Source: an uncultured Candidatus Saccharibacteria bacterium (GTDB taxonomy: Bacteria > Patescibacteriota > Minisyncoccia > UBA6257 > Colwellbacteraceae). Taken from it: a stretch of DNA of 64,000 nucleotides. Below are positions 1,832 to 60,568 of the stretch, one piece after another (within the stretch, counting starts at the first letter, position 1; every line of letters begins with the position of its first letter). The stretch covers positions 44,853 to 108,852 of the forward strand of contig CAYHTW010000003.1 in assembly GCA_964360065.1 (NCBI GenBank). Direction: 5' to 3'. A model generated the notes under the pieces. The model had not been told where the DNA came from. It searched no databases and saw only the letters and a list, made by a program, of their open reading frames with translations. A program made the translations under genes and the position numbers.

Positions 1832-3823
1832 TTATTTTTCTTTACTTTTGCTTCTTTTGATAAGTTCTTTCACTTCGTCGCGCAAAATTGCAGCGAGTTC
1901 AAAGTCCAGATTTTTCGCAGCTTCTTTCATTTCTCTTTCCTTGGTCTTCAGTAATCTTTCCATCTCGGTCTTGGATTTTATTACCGGTGCCAATTCCAAT
2001 TCCAAAATATCGTCCGGCAAAATACTGGTAATAGGCCTGATGATGGTTCTCGGCGTAATGCCGTGTTCCTTGTTATAGGCCAATTGTATTTCCCTTCTTC
2101 TATTAGTCTCGCCGACAGCACGCTCTATGGAGCCCGTGATTTTATCGGCGTAAATCAGAACTTCACCCCTGACGTTTCTGGCGGCGCGGCCTATGACCTG
2201 AATTAAAGAAGTATCACTTCTCAAGAATCCTTCCTTGTCGGCATCCAAGATGGCAATCAGTGATACCTCCGGCAAGTCCAAGCCCTCTCTCAATAAGTTA
2301 ACCCCAACCAGAACATCAAACTCCCCTTTTCTTAAACCGGTCAGGAGCCTGATTCTGTCCAGAGTTTTAACATCGCTGTGGAGATAGTTAACTTTTATGC
2401 CTTCTTCCTCTAAGTATTGAGATAAATCCTCGGCCATCTTCTTGGTAAGGGTTGTCACTAGAACTCTTTCCTTTTCGGACACCCTTTGTTTAATTCTCGG
2501 AACTAAGTCATCAATCTGGCCTGTTGCCGGCAACATCGTGATTATTGGATCTACTAACCCTGTAGGCCTGATAATCTGCTCCACTACTTGCCCTGAGCCT
2601 GTCGAAGGGTCGCTCTTCTCTTTCTCATAATTACTTGGGGTCGCTGAAGTGTATATAACCTGGGGCATCCTGGCTTCAAATTCTTTAAATTGCAAAGGAC
2701 GGTTATCTGCCGCCGAAGGCAGCCTAAAGCCGTAATCAATTAAAGTTGATTTACGGGCCTTGTCGCCCGCAAACATTCCTCTGATTTGTGGCACGCTCGC
2801 GTGAGATTCGTCTATAACCATCAAAAAATCTTTAGGGAAGTAATCCAACAAAGTTGCCGGAGGTTCTCCGGCAGGCCTGCCCGACAAGTGTCTGGAGTAA
2901 TTCTCAATGCCATGGCAATAACCGGCCTCCCTTATCATTGCAATGTCGTTTAAGGTACGTCTTTCAATTCTTTCCGCCTCCAGAAACTTTCCTTCTTTCT
3001 CAAACTTCTTGAGCTGGTCTTTAAGTTCCTGCTTGATAGTTACCAGCGCTTTTTCTCTTTCGTCGCTCATAGTAATAAAATGTCTGGCCGGAGATATAAA
3101 AACTTCGTTCACGCTCGGTGTTTTGCCGAACTGGAATCCTTTAACCGGGTCAACTATAAATATCTCGGCAATTTTATTTTCGGAAAGCCTGAAATTATAA
3201 ATAACTTCCTCGTTTGGAGGCATAATCTCCCAGCTGTCGCCGCGCAGCCTGAAAGTGCCCCGTTTTAAATCGGCATTAGTTCTGCTAAATTGCATACCTA
3301 CCAGTTTCCTCACCAAAGCTTTCCTGTCTATGAAGTCCCCAACCTTAAAATGAATAATGCTTTCGGCATATGCTTCCGGAGCTCCCAAACCATAAATACA
3401 TGAAACGGAGGCCACTACTATCACGTCTTTGCGAGTAAGAAGCGCAGTAGTGGAAGCATGCCTTAACTTATCTATCTCATCGTTAATCATAGCTTCCTTG
3501 TCTATATAGGTGTCAGTTGAAGGCATATAAGCCTCCGGCTGATAGTAGTCGTAGTAAGAAACGAAGTAATGCACGGCGTTGTGGGGAAAGAGTTCGCGGA
3601 ACTCATTGCAGAGCTGGGCAGCTAGGGTTTTATTGTGAGCTATAACCAGAGTCGGCTTCTGAATAGCCTCTATAACATTAGCAATCGTAAAAGTCTTGCC
3701 GGAACCGGTCACGCCCAAAAGAGTCTGGTTTTTGTAGCCCTTTTTTAAACCATAAACAAGCTTAACTATAGCCTGTGGCTGGTCTCCTGCCGGTTTGTTA
3801 TCCGATACTATTTCAAATTTCAT
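1832..3823 (-). CDS. uvrB: Excinuclease ABC subunit B (UvrB)
   Basis: 663-aa ORF; the N-terminus ([32 protein letters not shown]), helicase motifs, and a C-terminal UvrB/UvrC interaction coil ([15 protein letters not shown]) are typical of UvrB. Confidence 0.95.
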
Positions 3824-4428: not shown

Positions 4429-4481
4429 AACATTATTGGCCTAAACTAAAATCTAATCAAAATCCAGACTAAATTCCCACT

Positions 4482-4517
4482 AGTATACTATAGTACTGAT
4501 CAGTACTATAGTATACT
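4482..4517. repeat. 36-bp perfect AT-rich palindrome AGTATACTATAGTACTGA|TCAGTACTATAGTATACT, immediately 3' of the 101-aa gene; a related copy is at 41640-41697
   Basis: Checked base by base: arms are perfectly complementary over 18+18 nt around a central GATC. Confidence 0.9.
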
Positions 4518-13698: not shown

Positions 13699-14313
13699 TT
13701 ATGAATAGTAGTCGACGACTATGTTTATATCAAATACCTGTGGCACATCTGCGGGCTTAGCCAAAACCTCAGCCGAGAGAGTCATGGGATCCAACTTAAG
13801 CCAAGTTGGAACCTCAAATCCTTTCAATTTCTCGGGTAAATCCTTGAGGGTGCCGTGATTCCTGGATTGCTCCCTGACCGCAATCTTATCTCCGACCCTA
13901 ACCCTTAATGAAGGAATAGTGACTCTCCTGCCGTTAACAGTAATGTGGCCGTGGCCTACAATCTGCTTGGATGAGCTTCTGGAAGGCGCAAAGCCAAGCC
14001 TGTAAATAACGTTATCCAAACGGGATTCTAAAATACCCAATACTTCCTCGGAAGTTACTCCTGGTTTCCTGAAAGATTCCACGAAAACTTTAGCCAACTG
14101 CCTCTCGGTTAGGCCATAAGAGAACTTTAATTTCTGTTTCTCGCGAAGCTGGATGCCGAACTCGGAAACCTTCCTTCTTCCTCTTGTCTTACCGTGCTGC
14201 CCTGGCCTGTATGGCTTTCTTAAAAGTGCGCTCTTCGGTGAATTAGCGCGGTCTCCCTTGATAGAAAGCTTCACGCCTAAACTCCTCTCCTTTTTCTCTA
14301 AGATTTTTTGCAT
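13699..14313 (-). CDS. rpsD: 30S ribosomal protein S4
   Basis: 204 aa; LSEFGIQLREKQKLKFSYGLTERQ and the S4 RNA-binding domain. Confidence 0.92.
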   Translation of the reverse strand: MQKILEKKERSLGVKLSIKGDRANSPKSALLRKPYRPGQHGKTRGRRKVSEFGIQLREKQKLKFSYGLTERQLAKVFVESFRKPGVTSEEVLGILESRLDNVIYRLGFAPSRSSSKQIVGHGHITVNGRRVTIPSLRVRVGDKIAVREQSRNHGTLKDLPEKLKGFEVPTWLKLDPMTLSAEVLAKPADVPQVFDINIVVDYYS

Positions 14314-14371
14314 GCCAATTTTGTTTAAATTTTTAAATTTATTTGTAGCGATGGAAATTTAATCACAAAAT

Positions 14372-14477
14372 TGAGCACCGAGCACTCAGTACCAACCAAT
14401 TGATATTGATTATTTATTTTTTGATTGATCATTATTTTCATAGTTTTATTCTGTAATTTATATGCTGAGTGCTCGGT
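14372..14477. repeat. Intergenic element bounded by inverted repeats TGAGCACCGAGCACTCAGTAC ... CTGAGTGCTCGGT with a ~70-nt AT-rich interior (copy 1; copy 2 at 52603-52702)
   Basis: The 21-nt left arm is identical in both copies. The right arm is its reverse complement (13/13 here). The interior sequences differ between copies. Confidence 0.85.
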
Positions 14478-14493
14478 AAGGGTTACCAAACCC

Positions 14494-14931
14494 TTATATT
14501 CTTCTGGATTTTGGAGGCTTAGGACCGTTGTGCGGAATCGGGGTTACGTCCCTGATGGATAAAATATTAAATCCAGAATTAGCCAAAGACCTAATAGCTG
14601 AATCCCTGCCTGAACCCACACCTGAAACAATAACCTCAATATCAACTGGGCCGGTCTTAGCTACCTTCTCACTTATGGCCGCTATTATTTTAGAGGCTGC
14701 GAAAGGAGTGGCTTTCTTAGGACCGGAGAAACCGAGAGAACCAGCAGTGGCCCAGGCTAAAACACCTCCCCTATCGTCTGTAATTGTAATTATGGTGTTG
14801 TTGTAAGAGGCTTTAATATAAACCCTACCGGAGCTTACTTTCCTACCTTCTTTCTTAGGGGCGACTACCTTAACAGTCTCTGTTCCCTTCTCCGCTTCCG
14901 CGGTCTTATTGGTAACTTTCTTCTGCCCCAT
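14494..14931 (-). CDS. rpsK: 30S ribosomal protein S11 (with a Lys-rich N-terminal extension)
   Basis: GRVYIKASYNNTIITITDDRGGVLAWATAGSLGFSGPKKATPFAA is S11. Confidence 0.92.
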   Translation of the reverse strand: MGQKKVTNKTAEAEKGTETVKVVAPKKEGRKVSSGRVYIKASYNNTIITITDDRGGVLAWATAGSLGFSGPKKATPFAASKIIAAISEKVAKTGPVDIEVIVSGVGSGRDSAIRSLANSGFNILSIRDVTPIPHNGPKPPKSRRI

Positions 14932-27424: not shown

Positions 27425-29059
27425 TTAAAAATCGCCTGGCATGCCGCTCATGCCTCCGCCCGGAGACGGGTTTTTCTTTTCCGGAATTTCTATCATAGCC
27501 GCCCCTATCGTCAAATAAGTGGCGGCTACCGAAACTGCATTTATAAAAGCTGTCTTGGTGACTTTAAGAGGATCAACTATACCGACTTCCTTCAAGTCTC
27601 CAACCTGGTTAGTCACAGCGTTAAAACCGGTCCAGGCGCTATTCGTTCTAGTCCTTTCTTTCACGACTTCGGATACAACCCTCTCCGCTGACTGGCCGCT
27701 ATTTTCCACTATGGCTTTAAGTGGTGAGAGCAAAGTTTTTTGGAGTATTTCTCTTGCGGCTTTGCCAATAGCGTTATCTGACTCCTTAAGCTTCACTCCA
27801 AATAGAGCCATGCCTCCACCAGGAACAATACCCTCTTCCATGGCGGCGCGGGTAGCGGAAACTGCGTCCTCTACTCTCTGTTTTAATTCTTTCTGGGCGG
27901 TTTCGGTAGGAGCCCCTACTTTAATAATCGCTACGCCGCCGGATAATTTACCCAAACGTTCCTGCAACTTCTCTTTATCAAAATCGGAATCTGTTTTCTG
28001 TATCTGACTTTTCAACTGACTGATACGTTTCTGTATTTCTTCTTTACTGCCCCCGCCGTCAACAATTGTAGTGTTGTCTTTATTGGATACCACACGCCTG
28101 GCCTTACCTAGAGATGCAATATCTACGGTACTTAGCTTCTTACCCAAATCTTCGGAAATAAGTTCGGCTCCGGTCACAACCGCGATGTCCTGCAACATTT
28201 CTTTCCTTCTGTCGCCGAATCCTGGAGCTTTAATCGCCAAGGCGTTAAATATGCCTCTGATTTTATTGACTATTAGAGTTGCTAAGGCTTCGCCATCAAT
28301 ATCTTCGGCAATAATCACCAATTCCTTTCTGCCACTTTGAATCATTTTTTCCAGCAACGGCAATAAATCACTAATGGAAGAAATCTTTTTATCCGTTACT
28401 AAGACGTATGGATTATCCAAGACTGCCTCCATCTTGTCCGGATTAGTTATCAAGTATTGAGAAACAAACCCTCTATCAAATTGCATTCCCTCTACGATTT
28501 CGTGGGAATTGCCAATTGTATTAGAGTCTTCCACGGTCACTACTCCTTCTTTGCCGATCTTATGCATCACTTCCGCTATAAGTTTGCCAATGTTGGAATC
28601 CTTGGCAGAAAGCCTAGCAACCTCTTCAATCTTCCCTTGGTCGTTAATAACTTCTTTCTGCTTTTCCAGTTCCGCCACCACTTCCTCGGAAGCCCGCCTA
28701 AGCTCTTCTGCTAGCTGAATAACATTAAAACCTTTTTCTCTGATAGCTTTCTCTCCCTCTTCTATGATGGAATGTGTCAGAACGACAGCGGTAGTTGTGC
28801 CGTCTCCGACATTGTCATTAGTCTTCTCGGCAGCTTGCTTGATAAAACTGGCTCCCAAGTTTTCATACTTATCTTCCAGTTCAACTTCTTTGGCAACTGT
28901 AACTCCATCAAAAGTTACCTGCGGAGCGCCGTAGCTTTTTTCTATAACCGCGGCCCGCCCTCTGGGCCCTAAAGTCATCCTGACGGCCTGAGCTAGTTTA
29001 TCTATTCCCTTCTTCAGCGATTCTCTCGCTTTTTCGTCAAATTTAATTTCTTTTGCCAT
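27425..29059 (-). CDS. groL: Chaperonin GroEL (60 kDa)
   Basis: 544 aa; [39 protein letters not shown]..., GDGTTTA, and a C-terminal GGM-type tail. Confidence 0.97.
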
Positions 29060-29137
29060 ATTTATATAAATTTATTTTAATTTATCTACAAATATGAGCA
29101 TCCCGCACTCGTCAGAGTTGCGGGGTGCCATACTTAT

Positions 29138-41639: not shown

Positions 41640-41697
41640 CTCTACAATCAGTATACTATAATACTGATCAGTACTATAGTATATTGGTAGAGTCCTC
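41640..41697. repeat. Imperfect long palindrome containing the same AGTATACTATA.TACTGATCAGTACTATAGTATA core as 4482-4517; overlaps the last codons of truB
   Basis: Core arms match copy 1 with 2 mismatches. The outer arms CTCTAC...GTAGAG extend the palindrome. Confidence 0.8.
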
Positions 41698-52144: not shown

Positions 52145-52557
52145 TAAATAAACTTTATTATTTTTTCTTTTATAGCGGAGACCGATTCCGAAGACTGGTT
52201 TTTCACCACCGAATGTATGGATCCTCCTCCATCCCCCTCAAATCTGGGGATAAGGTGGATATGGAGATGGTCTATCGCTTGTCCGCTTACTTTACCGTGG
52301 TTTATGCCTATTGTAAAGCCATGAGGCTTGATGGCTAAATTAAGAGCTGCGGTTACTTTTCTGACTCCTAAAAATAGCGGGCCCACGACCATCTCCGGCA
52401 AATCCAGAATGTTTTCGGCATGAACCTTGGGCACTACGATCGTGTGCCCAGGAGCTAATGGATGAATATCTAAGAATGCAAAAGCAGCCTTGTCTTCGTA
52501 GATTTTTTCCGAGGGTATCTCTCCTTTTACTATTTTACAGAATAAACAATCTGCCAT
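52144..52557 (-). CDS. HIT family (histidine triad) protein
   Basis: 137 aa with the HLHIHLIP histidine triad. Confidence 0.85.
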   Translation of the reverse strand: MADCLFCKIVKGEIPSEKIYEDKAAFAFLDIHPLAPGHTIVVPKVHAENILDLPEMVVGPLFLGVRKVTAALNLAIKPHGFTIGINHGKVSGQAIDHLHIHLIPRFEGDGGGSIHSVVKNQSSESVSAIKEKIIKFI

Positions 52558-52602
52558 AATTTTATAAATTTTGAGCGAAGCGATTAAATTTATCTAAAAT
52601 GA

Positions 52603-52702
52603 TGAGCACCGAGCACTCAGTACTATTTGTCGTATTATACTTGAATTTTTGCATTGATTAAATTTTGTCACAATTATTAATAGAAAATGTTGAGTGCTCG
52701 GC
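52603..52702. repeat. Second copy of the IR-bounded intergenic element (TGAGCACCGAGCACTCAGTAC ... TTGAGTGCTCGGC)
   Basis: The left arm is 21/21 identical to copy 1. The right arm matches 11/13 against the reverse complement. The interior is different and AT-rich. Confidence 0.85.
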
Positions 52703-52749
52703 TGAAGTTTGATAGATACATTTTGTCGTCCATAACTCCAAAATGTATA

Positions 52750-54057
52750 TCAAGCCTTCAGCCTTCTCTTAACTTCTTCAATAATCTTGCTTATAGGAAT
52801 GGATTCCTGCACTCCTGTTGCCATATCTCTTAATATAATATTCCCATCATAGGCTTCTTTTTGTCCCAATATAAGAGCAAAAGGCGCATTCACTTTAGCA
52901 GCGCGTTCTAACTGAGCCGAAAGCGAATCCTTACCCAAAGCCTCAGAAATAGGCACGTTGGCTTTTCTAAATTCCTCAACCAGCAAGAGCGCTCTCTTTT
53001 TAGTCATTTCTCCAACATGCACCAAAAATATTTTAGATTTCACTTTATTAACTTGGTCCTTTGAGTCGGCTCTTAGCATTTCTACAATACGCTCCAACCC
53101 AGCAGCAACTCCGGTAGCCGGAGTGGGCCTGCCTCCCAACATTTCAGACAAATAATCATATCTACCTCCAGAGGCGATAGCTAAGTCGCTTCCTTCACGA
53201 AAGATTTCAAAAACAGTTCTGTTATAGTAATCCAACCCTCTTACAAGATACGGATTTAAAGTGTATGGGATGCTGACTTCGTCCAGATATTCTAAGGCTT
53301 CCTTAAAGTGTTTCTTACAAGCCACACACAAGCTATCTAAGATAGACGGCGCCCCGAGTTTAACTGGCTGGCAGGCATCGTTTTTACAATCCAGCAGACG
53401 AAGTGGATTTTTCTCCAATCTCCCATCGCATTCCTTGCAAATGTCCTGCTTCTTATAGTATTCAATAAGCTTTTTCTTATAGTTAGGCCGGCAGACTCGG
53501 CAACCAATGCTATTAATCTGCACCATTAGATTTTTAGCTTTTAGCTCTTCTAAATATCGGTAAGCCAGTATTATAACTTGCGCATCGTAGATAGGATCCC
53601 CCTCTCCGCCTAATATTTCAAAGCCTAATTGATTAAATTGCCTATATCTGCCAGCTTGAGGTTTTTCGTGTCTAAAAACCGGGCCTAGGTAATACAACTT
53701 CAAAGGCTGGGGCAGGCGATGCAACCCGTTTTCTATGTAACTTCTTACAACAGGCGCAGTGAACTCCGGCCGCAACGCCAACCTGTCTCCTCCCTTGGTG
53801 CGTAAAACAAACATCTCCTTTTCTACAATGTCAGTCGCTTCTCCAACCCCGCGAACAAAAAGGTCCACGTTTTCTAAAATAGGGGTTTCAATACGGGCAA
53901 AATTATAAAAATCAGCCACATCTTTCGCGGCCCTGTAGACCTTGTCCCATAATGGCCGGTCAGCAGGAAGTATGTCGTGCATCCCTTTAGGCGATTGGAA
54001 AGTCAATATTTTTGCTTCCTTCACCTTCTTAACCGGTTCTTTCTGATTGATGGACAT
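52750..54057 (-). CDS. hisS: Histidyl-tRNA synthetase
   Basis: 435 aa; class II motifs and an anticodon-binding C-terminus (GMHDILP..., FRHEKPQAGRYRQFNQ, GGRYD). Confidence 0.93.
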   Translation of the reverse strand: MSINQKEPVKKVKEAKILTFQSPKGMHDILPADRPLWDKVYRAAKDVADFYNFARIETPILENVDLFVRGVGEATDIVEKEMFVLRTKGGDRLALRPEFTAPVVRSYIENGLHRLPQPLKLYYLGPVFRHEKPQAGRYRQFNQLGFEILGGEGDPIYDAQVIILAYRYLEELKAKNLMVQINSIGCRVCRPNYKKKLIEYYKKQDICKECDGRLEKNPLRLLDCKNDACQPVKLGAPSILDSLCVACKKHFKEALEYLDEVSIPYTLNPYLVRGLDYYNRTVFEIFREGSDLAIASGGRYDYLSEMLGGRPTPATGVAAGLERIVEMLRADSKDQVNKVKSKIFLVHVGEMTKKRALLLVEEFRKANVPISEALGKDSLSAQLERAAKVNAPFALILGQKEAYDGNIILRDMATGVQESIPISKIIEEVKRRLKA

Positions 54058-57214: not shown

Positions 57215-60200
57215 TTACGGAGACCAATTAACTATAACATCATCAACTCTAGGTGAAGTAGCAGTATCAACTTTCTGTAGAATTACCTTATATCGGTAAT
57301 ATCTCGTGCCCTTACTGTAGGCACCATTTAACGGGACTGGAGAGTTTGGGCCACTAGTAGTGTAGTAAGTACCGGTTGATCCTCCAGGACCAAGATAAGT
57401 CCAGGCGCCTGTGTTGCAAGTGGGAGCATTAGTCTGACCACCTGGGCAATTGGAGGCGGCAAACTGGAAAGTGACGTAATTGGTACCTCCTGTCCCTAGG
57501 GCTCCTTGCCACATAAGTGAATTGTGATTCACGCCTTTAGTGAAGCCTGTGTCATATGTGCTGGAAATTAACGAACCGGTGGTAAGGACTCCGATTATAA
57601 ACCCGCCGCTAAAAGTTCCGGTCTGGGTATCAGGATTGGTCACCCTAACATCCCAAGCTCCATTAGCCGCTCCTGTGATGGGACAAGTTCCATTAGAAAG
57701 AGTTGTGGAATTAGTAAAGATAAAACCTGTGCAATTGATGGTTGTCTGGCCCGATTTCAAAAGTGATACCGTTGCTCCAGAAATAAAGTTAGTGCCCGAA
57801 ACGGAAATGATAGAAACGGGTGCGTTGTTGATGCCGCTCGTTGGGTTAATCGCAGTAGTGGTAGGAGCCGCTAGAGAAGTAGTAAAACTCCCATCGGCGG
57901 AATAAGACGTACCTATGCTGTTGGTGGCGTAGCCTCGGTAATAGATAAGGGTGCCTGGCGGCATTCCAGATCTGGCCTGAGTGAAAACTCCCGTGGTGGT
58001 GCCTCCTTCAGCAGTACAGTTAGTTGTTGGGGTGGCTGTGGTTGCCCAGCATGTGCCTTTGGCTGTAAGAGTGATGCCTCCATTAGAAGTGACATTAGCA
58101 CCGAGCGTGACGCCTGTAGGGGTAATGGAAGTGGCGGTGGGAGAAGTGACGGTTGGAAGTCCCGTCACACTAAATGTTCCGTTACTTGTGAAAGTATGAA
58201 TAGTATTTGCGCCACTAGTTGTTATCGTGCCGCCAGTAACAGTATAAGCAGAGAAATCTGCGGTTACGTAAGAAATAATAACTATACCAATTACTCCAAC
58301 TTTCCCATTCCCACTTGGGCTAGAACCCATGCCTCCACTTCCTTTTTCAGTACGGTCACCTTGACCACTAGAATAACTACCACCAACGCCGTAAGTTACA
58401 GCAGACCCAGAAATTGAATTTACAATTCCAGGTCCTGGAGTATAACCACTACCATCTCCTCCAGCGCCACCGCCGCCACCTTCCCAGGCGCTATTTGCTG
58501 CCCCGTCTCCTCCTTTACCACCCTGAAAACCAATTCCACCTGCTCCTCCACCTTCCATAGATCCTCCCCCACCAGAACCACCACTACTACCTGCATTACT
58601 TAGGGAACCGTATGCTCCTCCTCCGCCGCCATAGGCAATCGTGGCTGAAAAAACTGAGTTGCCACCATTCCCGCCTTGTCCAGCTCCACCATTAATTCCA
58701 GCGACGCCCGCCGCTCCAACTGTAACAGAATACGCTTGGGTGGTAACTGGAAGGGCAGCATTATATTGATAACCACCCGCACCCCCTCCTCCTCCCCTAT
58801 TGGTGTAACTTGCTCCTCCTCCGCCCCCTCCTCCTACTGAAAATACTTTTACCGCTCCAATAGGAGCTCCCGGCACAATAGAGAAAATCCCGCTTGTCGT
58901 GAAAGTATGAATAGTATTTGCGCCACTAGTTGTTATCGTGCCGCCAGTAACAGTATAAGCAGAGAAATCTGCGGTTACGTAAGAAATAATAGTAACCCCA
59001 GAACCACCAGCCCCTCCTTTATAGTAGCCACCACCACTACCTCGAGTGCCTCCACCTCCTCCACCAAGACCATTTGTTCCAGCATAACCATCGCCTCCAA
59101 GTCTTCCTGCTGCTCCTCCACCATTACCACCCGATCCCTGTCCTGCTCCACCTGCCCCCCCTCCACCACCAGCGTAATATATACTTGATCCACTAATATC
59201 ATTAGAAAAACCAGCGCCACCATTTCCACCGACTCCATTTGGACTAGCGGCATCGGTTCCATTTAAACCAATTGCTCCGGCTCCCCCTCCTCCAGCGCCC
59301 CCTCCCTCTGTGCTTTCTCCTCCGTGGCCTCCGTTATATCCTTGACTTGCAGTTCCTCCGATACCTCCATTATTACTTTCAGCACCACCCCCACCACCAC
59401 CAGACCCTCCGTTTCTTCCATTTGTTCCACTACCACCAACACCTCCACCTCCACCTCCATTTCCGGTTATAGTTGAAAAACTAGATGCAGCACCATCGTT
59501 TCCTTGATTACCTACACTAGAAGCAGTCCCACCAACACCAACAATAACTGTATAATCTTGTGCAATAACAGAAAAAGAAGCATTGTATTGATAACCACCC
59601 GCACCACCCCCACCACCATTACGAGACCAAGAGGTTTGAGATCCCCCACTACCTCCACCTCCTATTACCAATGCTTTTACTTTCATCTTAAGAGTCACTG
59701 TAAAAATCCCGCTTGTCGTGAAAGTATGAATAGTATTTGCGCCGCTGGTCGTTACCGTGCCGCCAGTGATAGTGTATGCAGACCAGTCTGCCGTAACATA
59801 GCTGATGATGACGACTCCTGTGCCGCCAGTGCCTCCTGTATTACTTTTTGAACCGCCGCCGCCACCGCCGGTATTTGGTGTTCCGTTTTGCGGAGTAGCG
59901 GCTACAGATCCATTCCCACCGCCACCAACTCCACCAGTGCCTCCAGAATCATTATTACCACCACCTCCTCCACCACCTGCGTAAGTAACGGAAACGCCTG
60001 AAATTGAATTTGCTGTTCCTGCGCCGCCATTCGCTCCCTCATCATCTCCTGCATTTGCTCCTGCAGCAGAAGCTCCTCCTCCCCCTCCGCCCGCGCCTCC
60101 CGATGTCCCACCGTTATTTCCCTGACCAGATGTTCCTGTACCGTTCGCATAGTTATTACCGCCCCCACCACCGCTACCACCATTAACTCCCACACCCGAA

Positions 60201-60568
60201 GAAAGAGTACGTCCTCCTCCACCTCCTACTGCTGTATGTGTCGCAAAAACGCTATTCCCCCCCGGTGAGCCATTTTGTGTTCCATTAGACGGCCCACCAG
60301 CGCCGCCTCCTCCAACGGTTACCGAGTATGCCTGCGGTGTTACGGCAATGGCGGCATTATAAATATATCCACCCGCTCCTCCACCTCCCCCAGCAGTATT
60401 ACCGCTACCTACACTGGCGCCACCGCCTCCGCCTGCTACTACAAGCACATTTACTGTCGCTACAGAATGCGCAGGAGGAGTTCCGTACATAAAGCTTCCT
60501 ATGGTTAATAAACTAACTAAGATGGTTACCCCCCCTCCCGCGAATATGTGTTTTTTGGTGATTTTCAT
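57215..60568 (-). CDS. Giant glycine-rich modular surface protein (1117 aa): signal anchor, three Gly-rich modules each ending in a conserved ~40-aa block, C-terminal Thr/Ser-rich FN3-like and IPT/TIG-like domains
   Basis: Single uninterrupted ORF. The N-terminus is MKITKKHIFAGGGVTILVSLLTIGSF. The block ISYVTAD(W/F)SAYT(I/V)TGGT(V/I)TTSGANTIHTFT recurs three times. Gly runs take the form GGGGGAGGY(I/Q)YNA...AYSVTVG. The C-terminus contains YYRGYATNSIGTSY (FN3-like) and SIISVSGTNFISGATV...WDVRVTNPDTQTGTF (IPT/TIG-like). Confidence 0.7.
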   Translation of the reverse strand: MKITKKHIFAGGGVTILVSLLTIGSFMYGTPPAHSVATVNVLVVAGGGGGASVGSGNTAGGGGGAGGYIYNAAIAVTPQAYSVTVGGGGAGGPSNGTQNGSPGGNSVFATHTAVGGGGGRTLSSGVGVNGGSGGGGGNNYANGTGTSGQGNNGGTSGGAGGGGGGASAAGANAGDDEGANGGAGTANSISGVSVTYAGGGGGGGNNDSGGTGGVGGGGNGSVAATPQNGTPNTGGGGGGSKSNTGGTGGTGVVIISYVTADWSAYTITGGTVTTSGANTIHTFTTSGIFTVTLKMKVKALVIGGGGSGGSQTSWSRNGGGGGAGGYQYNASFSVIAQDYTVIVGVGGTASSVGNQGNDGAASSFSTITGNGGGGGGVGGSGTNGRNGGSGGGGGGAESNNGGIGGTASQGYNGGHGGESTEGGGAGGGGAGAIGLNGTDAASPNGVGGNGGAGFSNDISGSSIYYAGGGGGAGGAGQGSGGNGGGAAGRLGGDGYAGTNGLGGGGGGTRGSGGGYYKGGAGGSGVTIISYVTADFSAYTVTGGTITTSGANTIHTFTTSGIFSIVPGAPIGAVKVFSVGGGGGGGASYTNRGGGGGAGGYQYNAALPVTTQAYSVTVGAAGVAGINGGAGQGGNGGNSVFSATIAYGGGGGAYGSLSNAGSSGGSGGGGSMEGGGAGGIGFQGGKGGDGAANSAWEGGGGGAGGDGSGYTPGPGIVNSISGSAVTYGVGGSYSSGQGDRTEKGSGGMGSSPSGNGKVGVIGIVIISYVTADFSAYTVTGGTITTSGANTIHTFTSNGTFSVTGLPTVTSPTATSITPTGVTLGANVTSNGGITLTAKGTCWATTATPTTNCTAEGGTTTGVFTQARSGMPPGTLIYYRGYATNSIGTSYSADGSFTTSLAAPTTTAINPTSGINNAPVSIISVSGTNFISGATVSLLKSGQTTINCTGFIFTNSTTLSNGTCPITGAANGAWDVRVTNPDTQTGTFSGGFIIGVLTTGSLISSTYDTGFTKGVNHNSLMWQGALGTGGTNYVTFQFAASNCPGGQTNAPTCNTGAWTYLGPGGSTGTYYTTSGPNSPVPLNGAYSKGTRYYRYKVILQKVDTATSPRVDDVIVNWSP
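58188..59812. repeat. Three tandem intragenic DNA repeats (period ~710-820 bp) with >95-nt identical cores starting at 58188, 58899 and 59718
   Basis: GTGAAAGTATGAATAGTATTTGCGCCACTAGTTGTTATCGTGCCGCCAGTAACAGTATAAGCAGAGAAATCTGCGGTTACGTAAGAAATAATA is identical in copies 1 and 2. Copy 3 is diverged. The plus-strand ORFs 58196, 58907 and 59504 beginning MNSICA... are artefacts of this repeat. Confidence 0.9.

Follow-up and report, generated by a model that had tools for sequence, protein, structure and literature searches.

P1, a previously undescribed hairpin repeat family at gene junctions and in structural RNA genes of ultra-small groundwater bacteria

Correia/NEMIS elements of Neisseria and ERIC sequences of enterobacteria resemble miniature inverted-repeat transposable elements (MITEs), being 100–150 bp long, bounded by terminal inverted repeats and cotranscribed with their neighbours, and their RNA hairpins are cut by RNase III, which changes mRNA stability; Correia elements, moreover, are present by the hundred, duplicate a TA target and have interiors that are conserved. 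The palindromic elements (RPEs) of Rickettsia and the GC clusters and double-hairpin elements of mitochondria are small mobile hairpin repeats of reduced genomes, found in intergenic and tolerated genic positions that include the variable regions of structural RNAs, and RPEs also insert in frame in protein genes. Amongst the repetitive extragenic palindromes (REPs) of Proteobacteria, two inverted REPs around a spacer constitute a REPIN, mobilised by RAYTs (PMC3337134), and the REP superfamilies carry GTAG or CGTC tags (PMC3733652). For the rRNA genes of the Candidate Phyla Radiation (CPR), Tsurumaki et al. (2024) described many uncharacterised insertions shorter than 200 bp that lack open reading frames (ORFs), suggested that these are intervening sequences (IVSs) excised by RNase III, and reported neither a shared stem sequence nor a link to intergenic repeats (PMC11270868). 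The subject here is P1, a hairpin element with two full copies in a 64,000-nt stretch of DNA (the window) on contig CAYHTW010000003.1 of an uncultured Candidatus Saccharibacteria bacterium (GenBank assembly GCA_964360065.1; Patescibacteriota, Colwellbacteraceae). It belongs to a previously undescribed family of hairpin repeats of ~95 bases that is widespread in ultra-small groundwater bacteria. Literature searches on CPR rRNA insertions, Patescibacteria repeats and REPIN/RAYT systems brought up no description of the element, and a full-text literature search for the arm sequences returned unrelated primer matches only. Rfam 15 at gathering threshold recognised nothing in the window except two tRNAs, E-value scans of both copies against Rfam gave only chance-level matches far under the gathering scores, and a scan of viral contigs found no P1 copies.

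A first-pass annotation of the window, made from the sequence alone, had drawn attention to a conserved, hairpin-forming element between co-directional genes, present in two copies that start with an identical 21-mer, end with its reverse complement and enclose differing AT-rich interiors, and this description is upheld. With up to three mismatches allowed, the 21-mer TGAGCACCGAGCACTCAGTAC matches the plus strand of the window at exactly two places (14372–14392 and 52603–52623) and has no match in any of 100 dinucleotide shuffles of the window; the right arms are as had been written (CTGAGTGCTCGGT, 14465–14477; TTGAGTGCTCGGC, 52690–52702). The 11-nt core CCGAGCACTCA occurs four times in the window as two inverted pairs (14378/14466 and 52609/52691), where 0.5 occurrences are expected by chance and four were reached in 0 of 100 shuffles, and the inverted cores CCGAGCACTCA and TGAGTGCTCGG are perfect in each copy, separated by 77 nt in copy 1 and 71 nt in copy 2. 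The identity between the two interiors falls under the 0.62 cut-off (null mean, 0.53), and they are not significantly alike. Copy 1 lies on the minus strand in a run of genes in the order rpsM, rpsK, a 180-nt gap, rpsD, rpoA and rplQ, and copy 2 in a 192-nt gap between hisS and a HIT-family gene, also on the minus strand. On RNA folding, which the annotation had proposed as a check, both copies form a long hairpin closed by the arms whichever strand is folded (z-scores for copies 1 and 2 of −4.5 and −3.6 on the gene strand and of −6.2 and −2.0 on the opposite strand). In 12 strain-level contigs of the source population (Hainich groundwater and Logan assemblies) both gaps are identical to the window.

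The element as first delimited is real and covers only the middle hairpin, P1, of a larger conserved unit. In gene sense, conservation continues past that span for ~65 nt downstream to the start codon and for 20–60 nt upstream to the stop codon, and the full unit consists of three hairpins, H-up, P1 and H-down, that follow one another with no linkers and stretch from the upstream stop codon to the downstream start codon (14313–14496 and 52552–52761). A covariance model of H-down, R1, was used to scan the window. The components found in the window are as follows:

14477..14496, minus strand: H-up of copy 1, a minimal form (UAAGGGUU-UGGU-AACCCUUA), the first three bases being the rpsK UAA stop; based on sequence and fold.
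14378..14476, minus strand: P1 of copy 1, with arms CCGAGCACTCA (14378–14388) and TGAGTGCTCGG (14466–14476), a 77-nt AT-rich interior and a 13-bp perfect stem.
14313..14377, minus strand: H-down of copy 1, with a 12-bp base helix containing one bulged U (UGC-U-CAAUUUUGU / ACAAAAUUGGCA).
52702..52761, minus strand: H-up of copy 2, the full form of 60 nt, with the hisS UGA stop within its 5' strand.
52609..52701, minus strand: P1 of copy 2, with arms at 52609–52619 and 52691–52701 and a 71-nt AT-rich interior unrelated to that of copy 1.
52552..52608, minus strand: H-down of copy 2, 57 nt, with the HIT-family AUG inside its 3' strand (..UUAUGGCA); R1 62.8 bits, E = 5e-15.
29102..29125, minus strand: short P1-like hairpin in the groES–groEL gap (CCCGCAACUC-UGAC-GAGUGCGGG), a diverged short form in the central slot.
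29054..29100, minus strand: H-down hairpin in the groES–groEL gap, with the groEL AUG inside its 3' strand (..AUAUGGCA).

In copy 1, an inner 8-bp helix and an apical loop stand above the base helix of H-down, which scores 85.4 bits with R1 (E = 3e-21) and whose final base is the A of the rpsD AUG. R1 finds three H-down sites in the window, those of both copies and one in the groES–groEL gap (29048–29108, 42.4 bits, E = 1.9e-9), and this gap (29054–29125) is a third, partial unit; the orthologous junction on L068 (contigs other than the window are cited by L numbers) holds a full P1 with canonical arms. R1 also matches the H-up of copy 2 on the opposite strand (52694–52761, 25.9 bits, E = 6e-5), which identifies H-up as an inverted homologue of H-down. 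Two details noted in the first-pass annotation are reinterpreted by this anatomy. The U-rich tract after the 3' arm is no separate feature, being the 5' strand of H-down, and the tandem GAGCAC-C-GAGCAC is present, not as an internal property of the arm, and is made up of the P1 arm and the three-base foot of H-down.

The same architecture recurs across loci. The upstream stop codon forms the first three bases of the H-up helix at 24 of 36 loci and is at most 2 nt off at 30 of 36, TGA stops are paired with TCA in H-up, and the start codon is at the 3' end of H-down. Other lineages (e.g., L042, L067, L083) possess different H-up and H-down sequences with the same P1 arms. We know of no counterpart to this exact stop-to-start mosaic of three hairpins. 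On L131, two complete units (2632–2735 and 3221–3324) lie 589 nt apart, before rpsH and rplF. The central slot can be taken by other hairpin families: in the S11–S4 gap of another genome (L075 2700–2820) a GC-rich palindrome of another kind (AGGAGCCTCGCTCCT...AGGAGCGAGGCTCCT) stands behind an ordinary H-up, and the central slot of L116 holds CCCCCTCCTTTT...AAAAGGAGGGGG. At three further loci (L113 10442–10543, L029 4261–4362 and L024 96–197) H-down ends ..TTGGCA with no ATG behind it, and the downstream gene may start with TTG or there may be no gene downstream; on L113 a terminator-like hairpin (CCCCGCC-TTTC-GGCGGGG) directly follows H-down.

Searches with a 19-mer and with the paired cores show that the arms are conserved well outside the source genome. 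The 19-mer GAGCACCGAGCACTCAGTA matches six species-representative genomes, five of which are Patescibacteria metagenome-assembled or single-amplified genomes with the same architecture, and the pattern CCGAGCACTCA-N58-88-TGAGTGCTCGG is found in at least 120 metagenome contigs, mostly from groundwater and sediment samples. The sixth 19-mer match, on a Gemmatimonadales contig (L018 4743–4761), is a degenerate tandem array of ~13-nt units (GAGCACTCAGTAC)n in GC-rich DNA; since it lacks an inverted partner, it probably matches by chance, through low complexity, without belonging to the family. Amongst the matches listed there are 111 distinct elements, with AT-rich interiors (32% GC) whose length peaks sharply at 70–74 nt (55 of 111), and 65 of the 111 possess an H-down-type extension, always on one side and never on both. 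Arms measure 11–16 nt and spacers 50–85 nt, and P1 takes the form of an invariant, GC-rich terminal inverted repeat of 11–12 bp around a freely varying AT-rich interior, usually of 70–74 nt, in a total of ~95–105 bp. No conserved motif is common to all interiors, GGTCGT being restricted to a subfamily.

The genes downstream of P1 are housekeeping genes, including many for ribosomal proteins as well as serS, thrS, ssb, pilB/T, ftsE, adk, hrcA, dnaJ, clpB, groEL and HIT, and the further copies at operon junctions that the first-pass annotation had suggested looking for are present in other genomes and at groES–groEL in the window; on L015 a relative lies between divergent genes. P1 is also found inside genes for structural RNAs, with copies in large-subunit (LSU) rRNA genes (L020, L066, L101, L104, L038), small-subunit (SSU) rRNA genes (L088, L101, L109, L073) and an RNase P RNA gene (L108). 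On L101 it replaces the helix IV/loop D tip of 5S rRNA (position judged from the flanks), on L059 it lies between tRNA genes and on L115 just 5' of a tRNA. Short forms, consisting of a 12-bp stem with a tetraloop, cap H-down in L116 and L054 and AT-rich hairpins of other kinds in L054 and L048, and L020 has one in the helix 25 region of its 23S rRNA gene. Given these positions, between H-up and H-down, atop H-down and at the tips of structural-RNA helices, P1 is always at the apex of a larger, pre-existing palindrome. In the 23S rRNA gene of L020 (9525–9607) the interior holds a second, oppositely oriented pair of arm-like sequences, with which the region can fold as one long P1 or as two short tandem hairpins (each with a 12-bp stem and a UCUUG loop).

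The presence or absence of P1 varies amongst orthologous gene junctions, four of which were compared:

S11–S4 junction: empty in L060 (ATA TAA AAT ATG) and L084 (10-nt spacer); filled in the window and L091.
rpoA–L17 junction: empty in the window; filled in L060.
L17–L13 junction: empty in the window (TAA C ATG); filled in L084.
hisS–HIT junction: empty in L054 (TAA ATG); filled in the window.

Empty junctions take the form TAA-N0-10-ATG with no Shine-Dalgarno (SD) sequence. P1 interiors at orthologous junctions have an identity of 0.47–0.70 (null mean, 0.53; 99th percentile, 0.64) and are no more alike than chance. Closely similar interiors are found at unrelated junctions, in reverse orientation in L063/L091 (96% identical, from the same metagenome), L085/L096 (86%) and L040/L102 (82%) and in the same orientation in L053/L069 (89%); the interiors of L051/L127/L016 are 84–86% identical, and L099 possesses two 125-nt copies that are 99% identical and 3.1 kb apart. 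Shared interiors are often in opposite orientation relative to H-up and H-down. P1, arms and interior together, is thus a discrete unit that recurs nearly unchanged at unrelated loci and in either orientation to its flanks, and on account of these conserved-interior copies the family behaves like a MITE or REPIN. The window itself has two full copies and one short copy with unrelated interiors. Three contigs of the source population (L008, L012 and L013) start in or beside the element, at 54, 210 and 124 nt upstream of the downstream gene, respectively, ends that are consistent with assembly breaks at palindromic repeats.

Comparison across relatives, another check named in the first-pass annotation, reveals strong compensatory variation in both flanking hairpins. 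The 12-bp base helix of H-down can be placed in 53 of the 65 elements with an H-down-type extension. In a MAFFT alignment of 38 long-form sequences with a 20-pair structure, controlled by shuffling and by slid partners, 94.3% of the H-down cells are paired (73.1% when shuffled), 17 of the 20 pairs show compensatory change and the covariation score is 0.484, compared to 0.111 for the shuffle and 0.05–0.11 for slid partners; RNAalifold recovers the main H-down helix independently. For H-up, aligned from 29 sequences, 91.3% of cells are paired (70.1% shuffled), compensatory change is seen in 23 of 24 pairs and the covariation score is 0.536 (0.182 shuffled). If selection acted at the RNA level, G·U pairs would be expected well above A·C on the transcribed strand. 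In gene sense, H-down has 14 G·U and 13 A·C, H-up 20 and 16, and the inner extension of P1 74 and 83, and the sense and antisense folding energies of P1 are equal. The pairing of H-up, H-down and inner P1 is thus kept by compensatory changes with no G·U excess, and counts in which G·U equals A·C give no sign of strand-specific selection on an RNA. From the similar wobble counts, the equal energies and the pseudo-symmetry of the whole unit, we infer that palindromy is maintained in the DNA and not by selection on the sense-strand RNA, a conclusion that such modest counts suggest and do not prove. Two ideas on interactions between the hairpins were rejected. A strand-exchange model, in which the 3' strand of H-up competes for the 5' strand of H-down, fails as the hairpins vary independently (e.g., L028, L022), and for an extended P1 formed by pairing of H-up with H-down, complementarity within a locus (0.549) is barely over that between loci (0.526). 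A leaderless promoter in the 3' strand of H-down was likewise discarded, since its distance from the start codon does not suit one and is not constant, and since this strand covaries with the strand it pairs with.

Several of the described systems share features with this family. As in a REPIN as defined previously (PMC3337134), P1 has two conserved inverted arms and a less conserved spacer that form a ~100-nt hairpin. As in REPs and bacterial interspersed mosaic elements (BIMEs), the palindromic units form mosaics of alternating orientation inside operons and are cotranscribed, their pairing is kept by compensatory change, they persist over long times and each P1 arm is quasi-palindromic. Unlike REPs, P1 arms carry neither GTAG nor CGTC at their ends, starting as (T)TA-CCGAGCAC and finishing as GTGCTCGG-TGCTC. 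They are the same in genomes that diverged deeply, where REPs are lineage-specific, and P1 copies also occur inside rRNA, 5S and RNase P genes while REPs are extragenic; unlike a REP/RAYT system, the copy density is low and no RAYT, a Y1/HUH transposase whose gene REPs usually flank, was found for P1 (E. coli RayT query, 880 kb). The terminal inverted repeats are perfect over 11–13 nt, as in MITEs, and MITE-like conserved interiors at unrelated loci are found amongst family members, though not in the two window copies; the TA target duplication, conserved interiors and hundreds of copies of Correia elements are lacking for P1 in the data examined. With RPEs and GC clusters P1 shares the hairpin form and the occupation of spacers and structural RNA genes, while the sequence families and hosts differ and in-frame insertion in protein genes, as for RPEs, was not seen for P1. 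Similar to the IVSs of 23S rRNA, relatives of P1 are ~100-nt AT-rich extended stem-loops that replace a helix tip, e.g., in the helix 25 region of L020, and the distribution of both is sporadic and both are thought to be mobile, horizontally or within genomes. Helix-tip replacement holds for relatives in LSU and SSU genes and not for the window copies, and, unlike an IVS, this one hairpin with its invariant stem turns up at gene junctions in mRNA and in 16S, 5S and RNase P RNA as well.

Our favoured account, held with about as much confidence as doubt, is that P1 is a mobile palindromic repeat akin to REPINs, MITEs and RPEs, set in a BIME-like intercistronic mosaic of three palindromes and belonging to a Patescibacteria-wide family. 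By analogy with REP/REPIN, MITEs, the RPEs of Rickettsia and mitochondrial GC clusters, the hairpins would be kept and propagated as DNA, either through template switching and gene conversion or by an enzyme that recognises hairpins and reads their invariant arms, and copies would survive only at the few sites where so compact a genome can tolerate them. As the mosaic is cotranscribed with its operon, its RNA is predicted to fold into three hairpins in direct succession, with the stop and start codons brought side by side, and this juxtaposition probably preserves the coupling of termination and reinitiation. On the model of rRNA IVSs, REPs and Correia elements, the GC-rich P1 stem would be a likely site of double-strand-specific RNA processing or a barrier affecting stability, and an effect of this kind on RNA processing or stability is thus envisaged.

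A number of observations sit uneasily with mobility. The arms are identical across genomes whose ribosomal proteins are just 40–80% identical, and such identity across deep divergence would not normally be expected of selfish repeats and suggests a cellular factor that is itself conserved. On L104 (3611–3708), L055 (2979–3075) and L134 the arm sequence (CCGAGCACUCAAC/GUUGAGUGCUCGG) constitutes a native 13-bp helix of 23S rRNA, which encloses conserved rRNA sequence just 5' of GACCCGAA; the same helix has unrelated sequences in other CPR 23S genes and a diverged P1-like version in L020. A native helix with the exact arm sequence in one lineage is not explained by simple transposition. For the paired units of L131, a single genome, H-up is 100% and H-down ~92% identical while the P1 interiors are unrelated, which suggests concerted evolution of the flanks or replacement of P1. 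Copy density is low (~2–3 per 64 kb in the window and ~1 extra per 45 kb elsewhere), no transposase or recombinase is found next to any of the ~110 elements, and a phmmer search with E. coli RayT against 1769 ORF segments (880 kb of genome fragments) gave no match, the single-sequence search being insensitive. The first-pass annotation had taken conserved interiors together with target-site duplications as the mark of an ordinary MITE. The former are present at unrelated loci (L063/L091, L053/L069, L099) and the latter are not, with no direct repeat around P1 or the mosaic in the comparisons of filled and empty junctions or at the rRNA insertions. Regarding the RNA-level effect, the perfect P1 stem is only 13 bp in both window copies, and cleavage of these by RNase III is therefore not assured.

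It is also possible, if rather unlikely, that the three hairpins together work in cis as a functional RNA, which would punctuate or couple neighbouring cistrons by placing the stop beside the start for SD-independent reinitiation. A conserved protein, either an RNase or one that binds RNA, would then bind or cut the conserved P1 stem and have rRNA, 5S and RNase P RNA as further targets. Such a role would fit a unit that spans exactly from stop to start codon in three helices without linkers, the SD-less TAA-N0-10-ATG form of the empty junctions, the strong compensatory variation in both flanking hairpins, the pairing of TGA stops with TCA, arms that are invariant across deep divergence and that fill a native 23S helix in one lineage, and the enrichment of ribosomal-protein, aminoacyl-tRNA synthetase and chaperone genes downstream. 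This enrichment, however, may merely mirror where operon junctions exist, and the cis-acting role is at odds with the lack of a G·U excess over A·C in any helix, with P1 interiors that are freely replaced and stand in either orientation, with related genomes in which the same junction works without the unit, and with a unit between divergent genes, where no upstream gene exists (L015). A terminator or attenuator is highly improbable, whether formed by the long P1 stem, as had been proposed in the first-pass annotation, or by a local hairpin (UGAGUGC-UCG-GUGCUCA) with a U-rich stretch. A consensus scan does flag the local hairpin and a T-rich tail in both copies (three sites, with 0.2–0.4 expected), and P1 and the local hairpin are mutually exclusive in the manner of an attenuator. 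Unlike in an intrinsic terminator, however, the P1 stem encloses a loop of 60–85 nt and is followed by UGCUCAA and not directly by a U run, the T run being 7 nt away; the T-rich stretch belongs to the base helix of H-down, which covaries, and as its 5' strand pairs with the bases right ahead of the start codon; and the only alternative that fits the scan is the local hairpin, which is weak, with just 7 pairs, two of them G·U, and is lost in variants such as TGCGCAA and TGAACAA. Moreover, the element interrupts ribosomal-protein operons that are contiguous in relatives, and on L015 it lies between divergent genes.

Two DNA-level alternatives remain to be weighed. The arms, for which the first-pass annotation had also suggested a pair of protein-recognition sites, could be bound on the DNA by a conserved dimeric protein, as an operator pair or a split palindrome perhaps derived from CIRCE, the operator of HrcA (TTAGCACTC-N9-GAGTGCTAA). 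The half-sites TTAGCACTC and GAGTGCTAA share AGCACTC/GAGTGCT with the arms, with 7 bases per half-site identical, each 16-mer arm (TACYGAGYRCTCRGTA) is itself quasi-palindromic, short forms are contiguous palindromes of 28 bp, and P1 precedes hrcA (L027), dnaJ (L085), clpB (L032) and groEL (L068, with a short form in the window); a sequence-conserved, perfect Watson-Crick duplex of 11–12 bp is also more typical of DNA than of RNA recognition. Nevertheless, we consider an operator very unlikely. P1 lacks the 9-bp spacer of CIRCE, the GCACTC–GAGTGC spacing being 8 nt in most short forms (N8 in six of the nine spacings of ≤10 nt) and 62–90 nt in long forms, and the arm-to-arm distance varies by more than half a helical turn. 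No canonical CIRCE is found in the window, upstream of groES included, even with three mismatches allowed, most copies lie at genes unrelated to heat shock or inside RNA genes, and an operator would serve no purpose within 5S, 16S, 23S and RNase P genes. Least probable of all is an invertible switch (inverton), in which the arms are recombination sites and the interior carries a promoter that can be flipped. The arms are perfect inverted repeats of inverton-typical length and related interiors occur in both orientations relative to the flanks; these opposite orientations are, however, seen only at different loci and never at one, and neither gap differs amongst the 12 strain-level contigs of the source population. 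An interior of 60–85 bp is very short for recombinase-mediated inversion, copy 1 has no sigma-70-like promoter and copy 2 a single weak match on the non-coding strand, the interiors have no common motif, and no recombinase gene is adjacent. Apparent cases of inversion in situ (L026/L086, L058/L132 and L037/L089) proved to be the same locus read on opposite strands.

A further and more speculative proposal, for which the identical arms, the native 23S helix and the paired units of L131 leave room and which we regard as quite unlikely, is that the invariant stem CCGAGCAC(UCA)/(UGA)GUGCUCGG serves as a recognition tag for a conserved Patescibacteria endonuclease or a protein that binds double-stranded RNA or hairpins, acting alike on 23S, 16S, 5S and RNase P RNA, tRNA spacers and operon mRNAs. 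Were this so, the three-hairpin units would represent a genome-wide punctuation system that processes polycistronic transcripts and sustains SD-less reinitiation, the same machinery would remove or otherwise deal with the short unexplained insertions of CPR rRNA, and the native 23S helix converted to the tag in one lineage would reflect selection for binding of the factor. A large part of bacterial diversity falls within the Patescibacteria, whose rRNA genes are noted for many unexplained short insertions; the family links these with a repeat found as punctuation in housekeeping operons too, those for ribosomal proteins amongst them, and gives them the simple signature of an 11-nt stem that is the same in deeply diverged genomes. 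If merely selfish, P1 would be a rare case of a long-lived hairpin repeat in extremely streamlined genomes and a practical source of assembly breaks and mis-annotated 'intergenic' RNA. Recognition of the stem by a host factor would instead point to an RNA-processing or DNA-hairpin-handling activity shared across the radiation, and the three-hairpin spacer would constitute a new way to keep translational coupling across an insertion of 180–250 nt.

Other repeats are present in the window. A nearly perfect palindrome of 34–39 nt (AGTATACTATAGTACTGATCAGTACTATAGTATA) occurs in two copies that are 97% identical (4479–4517 and 41650–41688), one located in a short gap between genes and one where an ORF ends, and seems to represent a second family of palindromic repeats in this genome. 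On the minus strand at 57215–60568, an ORF of 1117 aa has several internal direct-repeat families of 33–139 nt (D1–D5, D8, D10 and D12, the short hairpin of the groES–groEL gap being family D6), with a plus strand rich in C and A runs, and probably encodes a repetitive Gly-rich surface protein.

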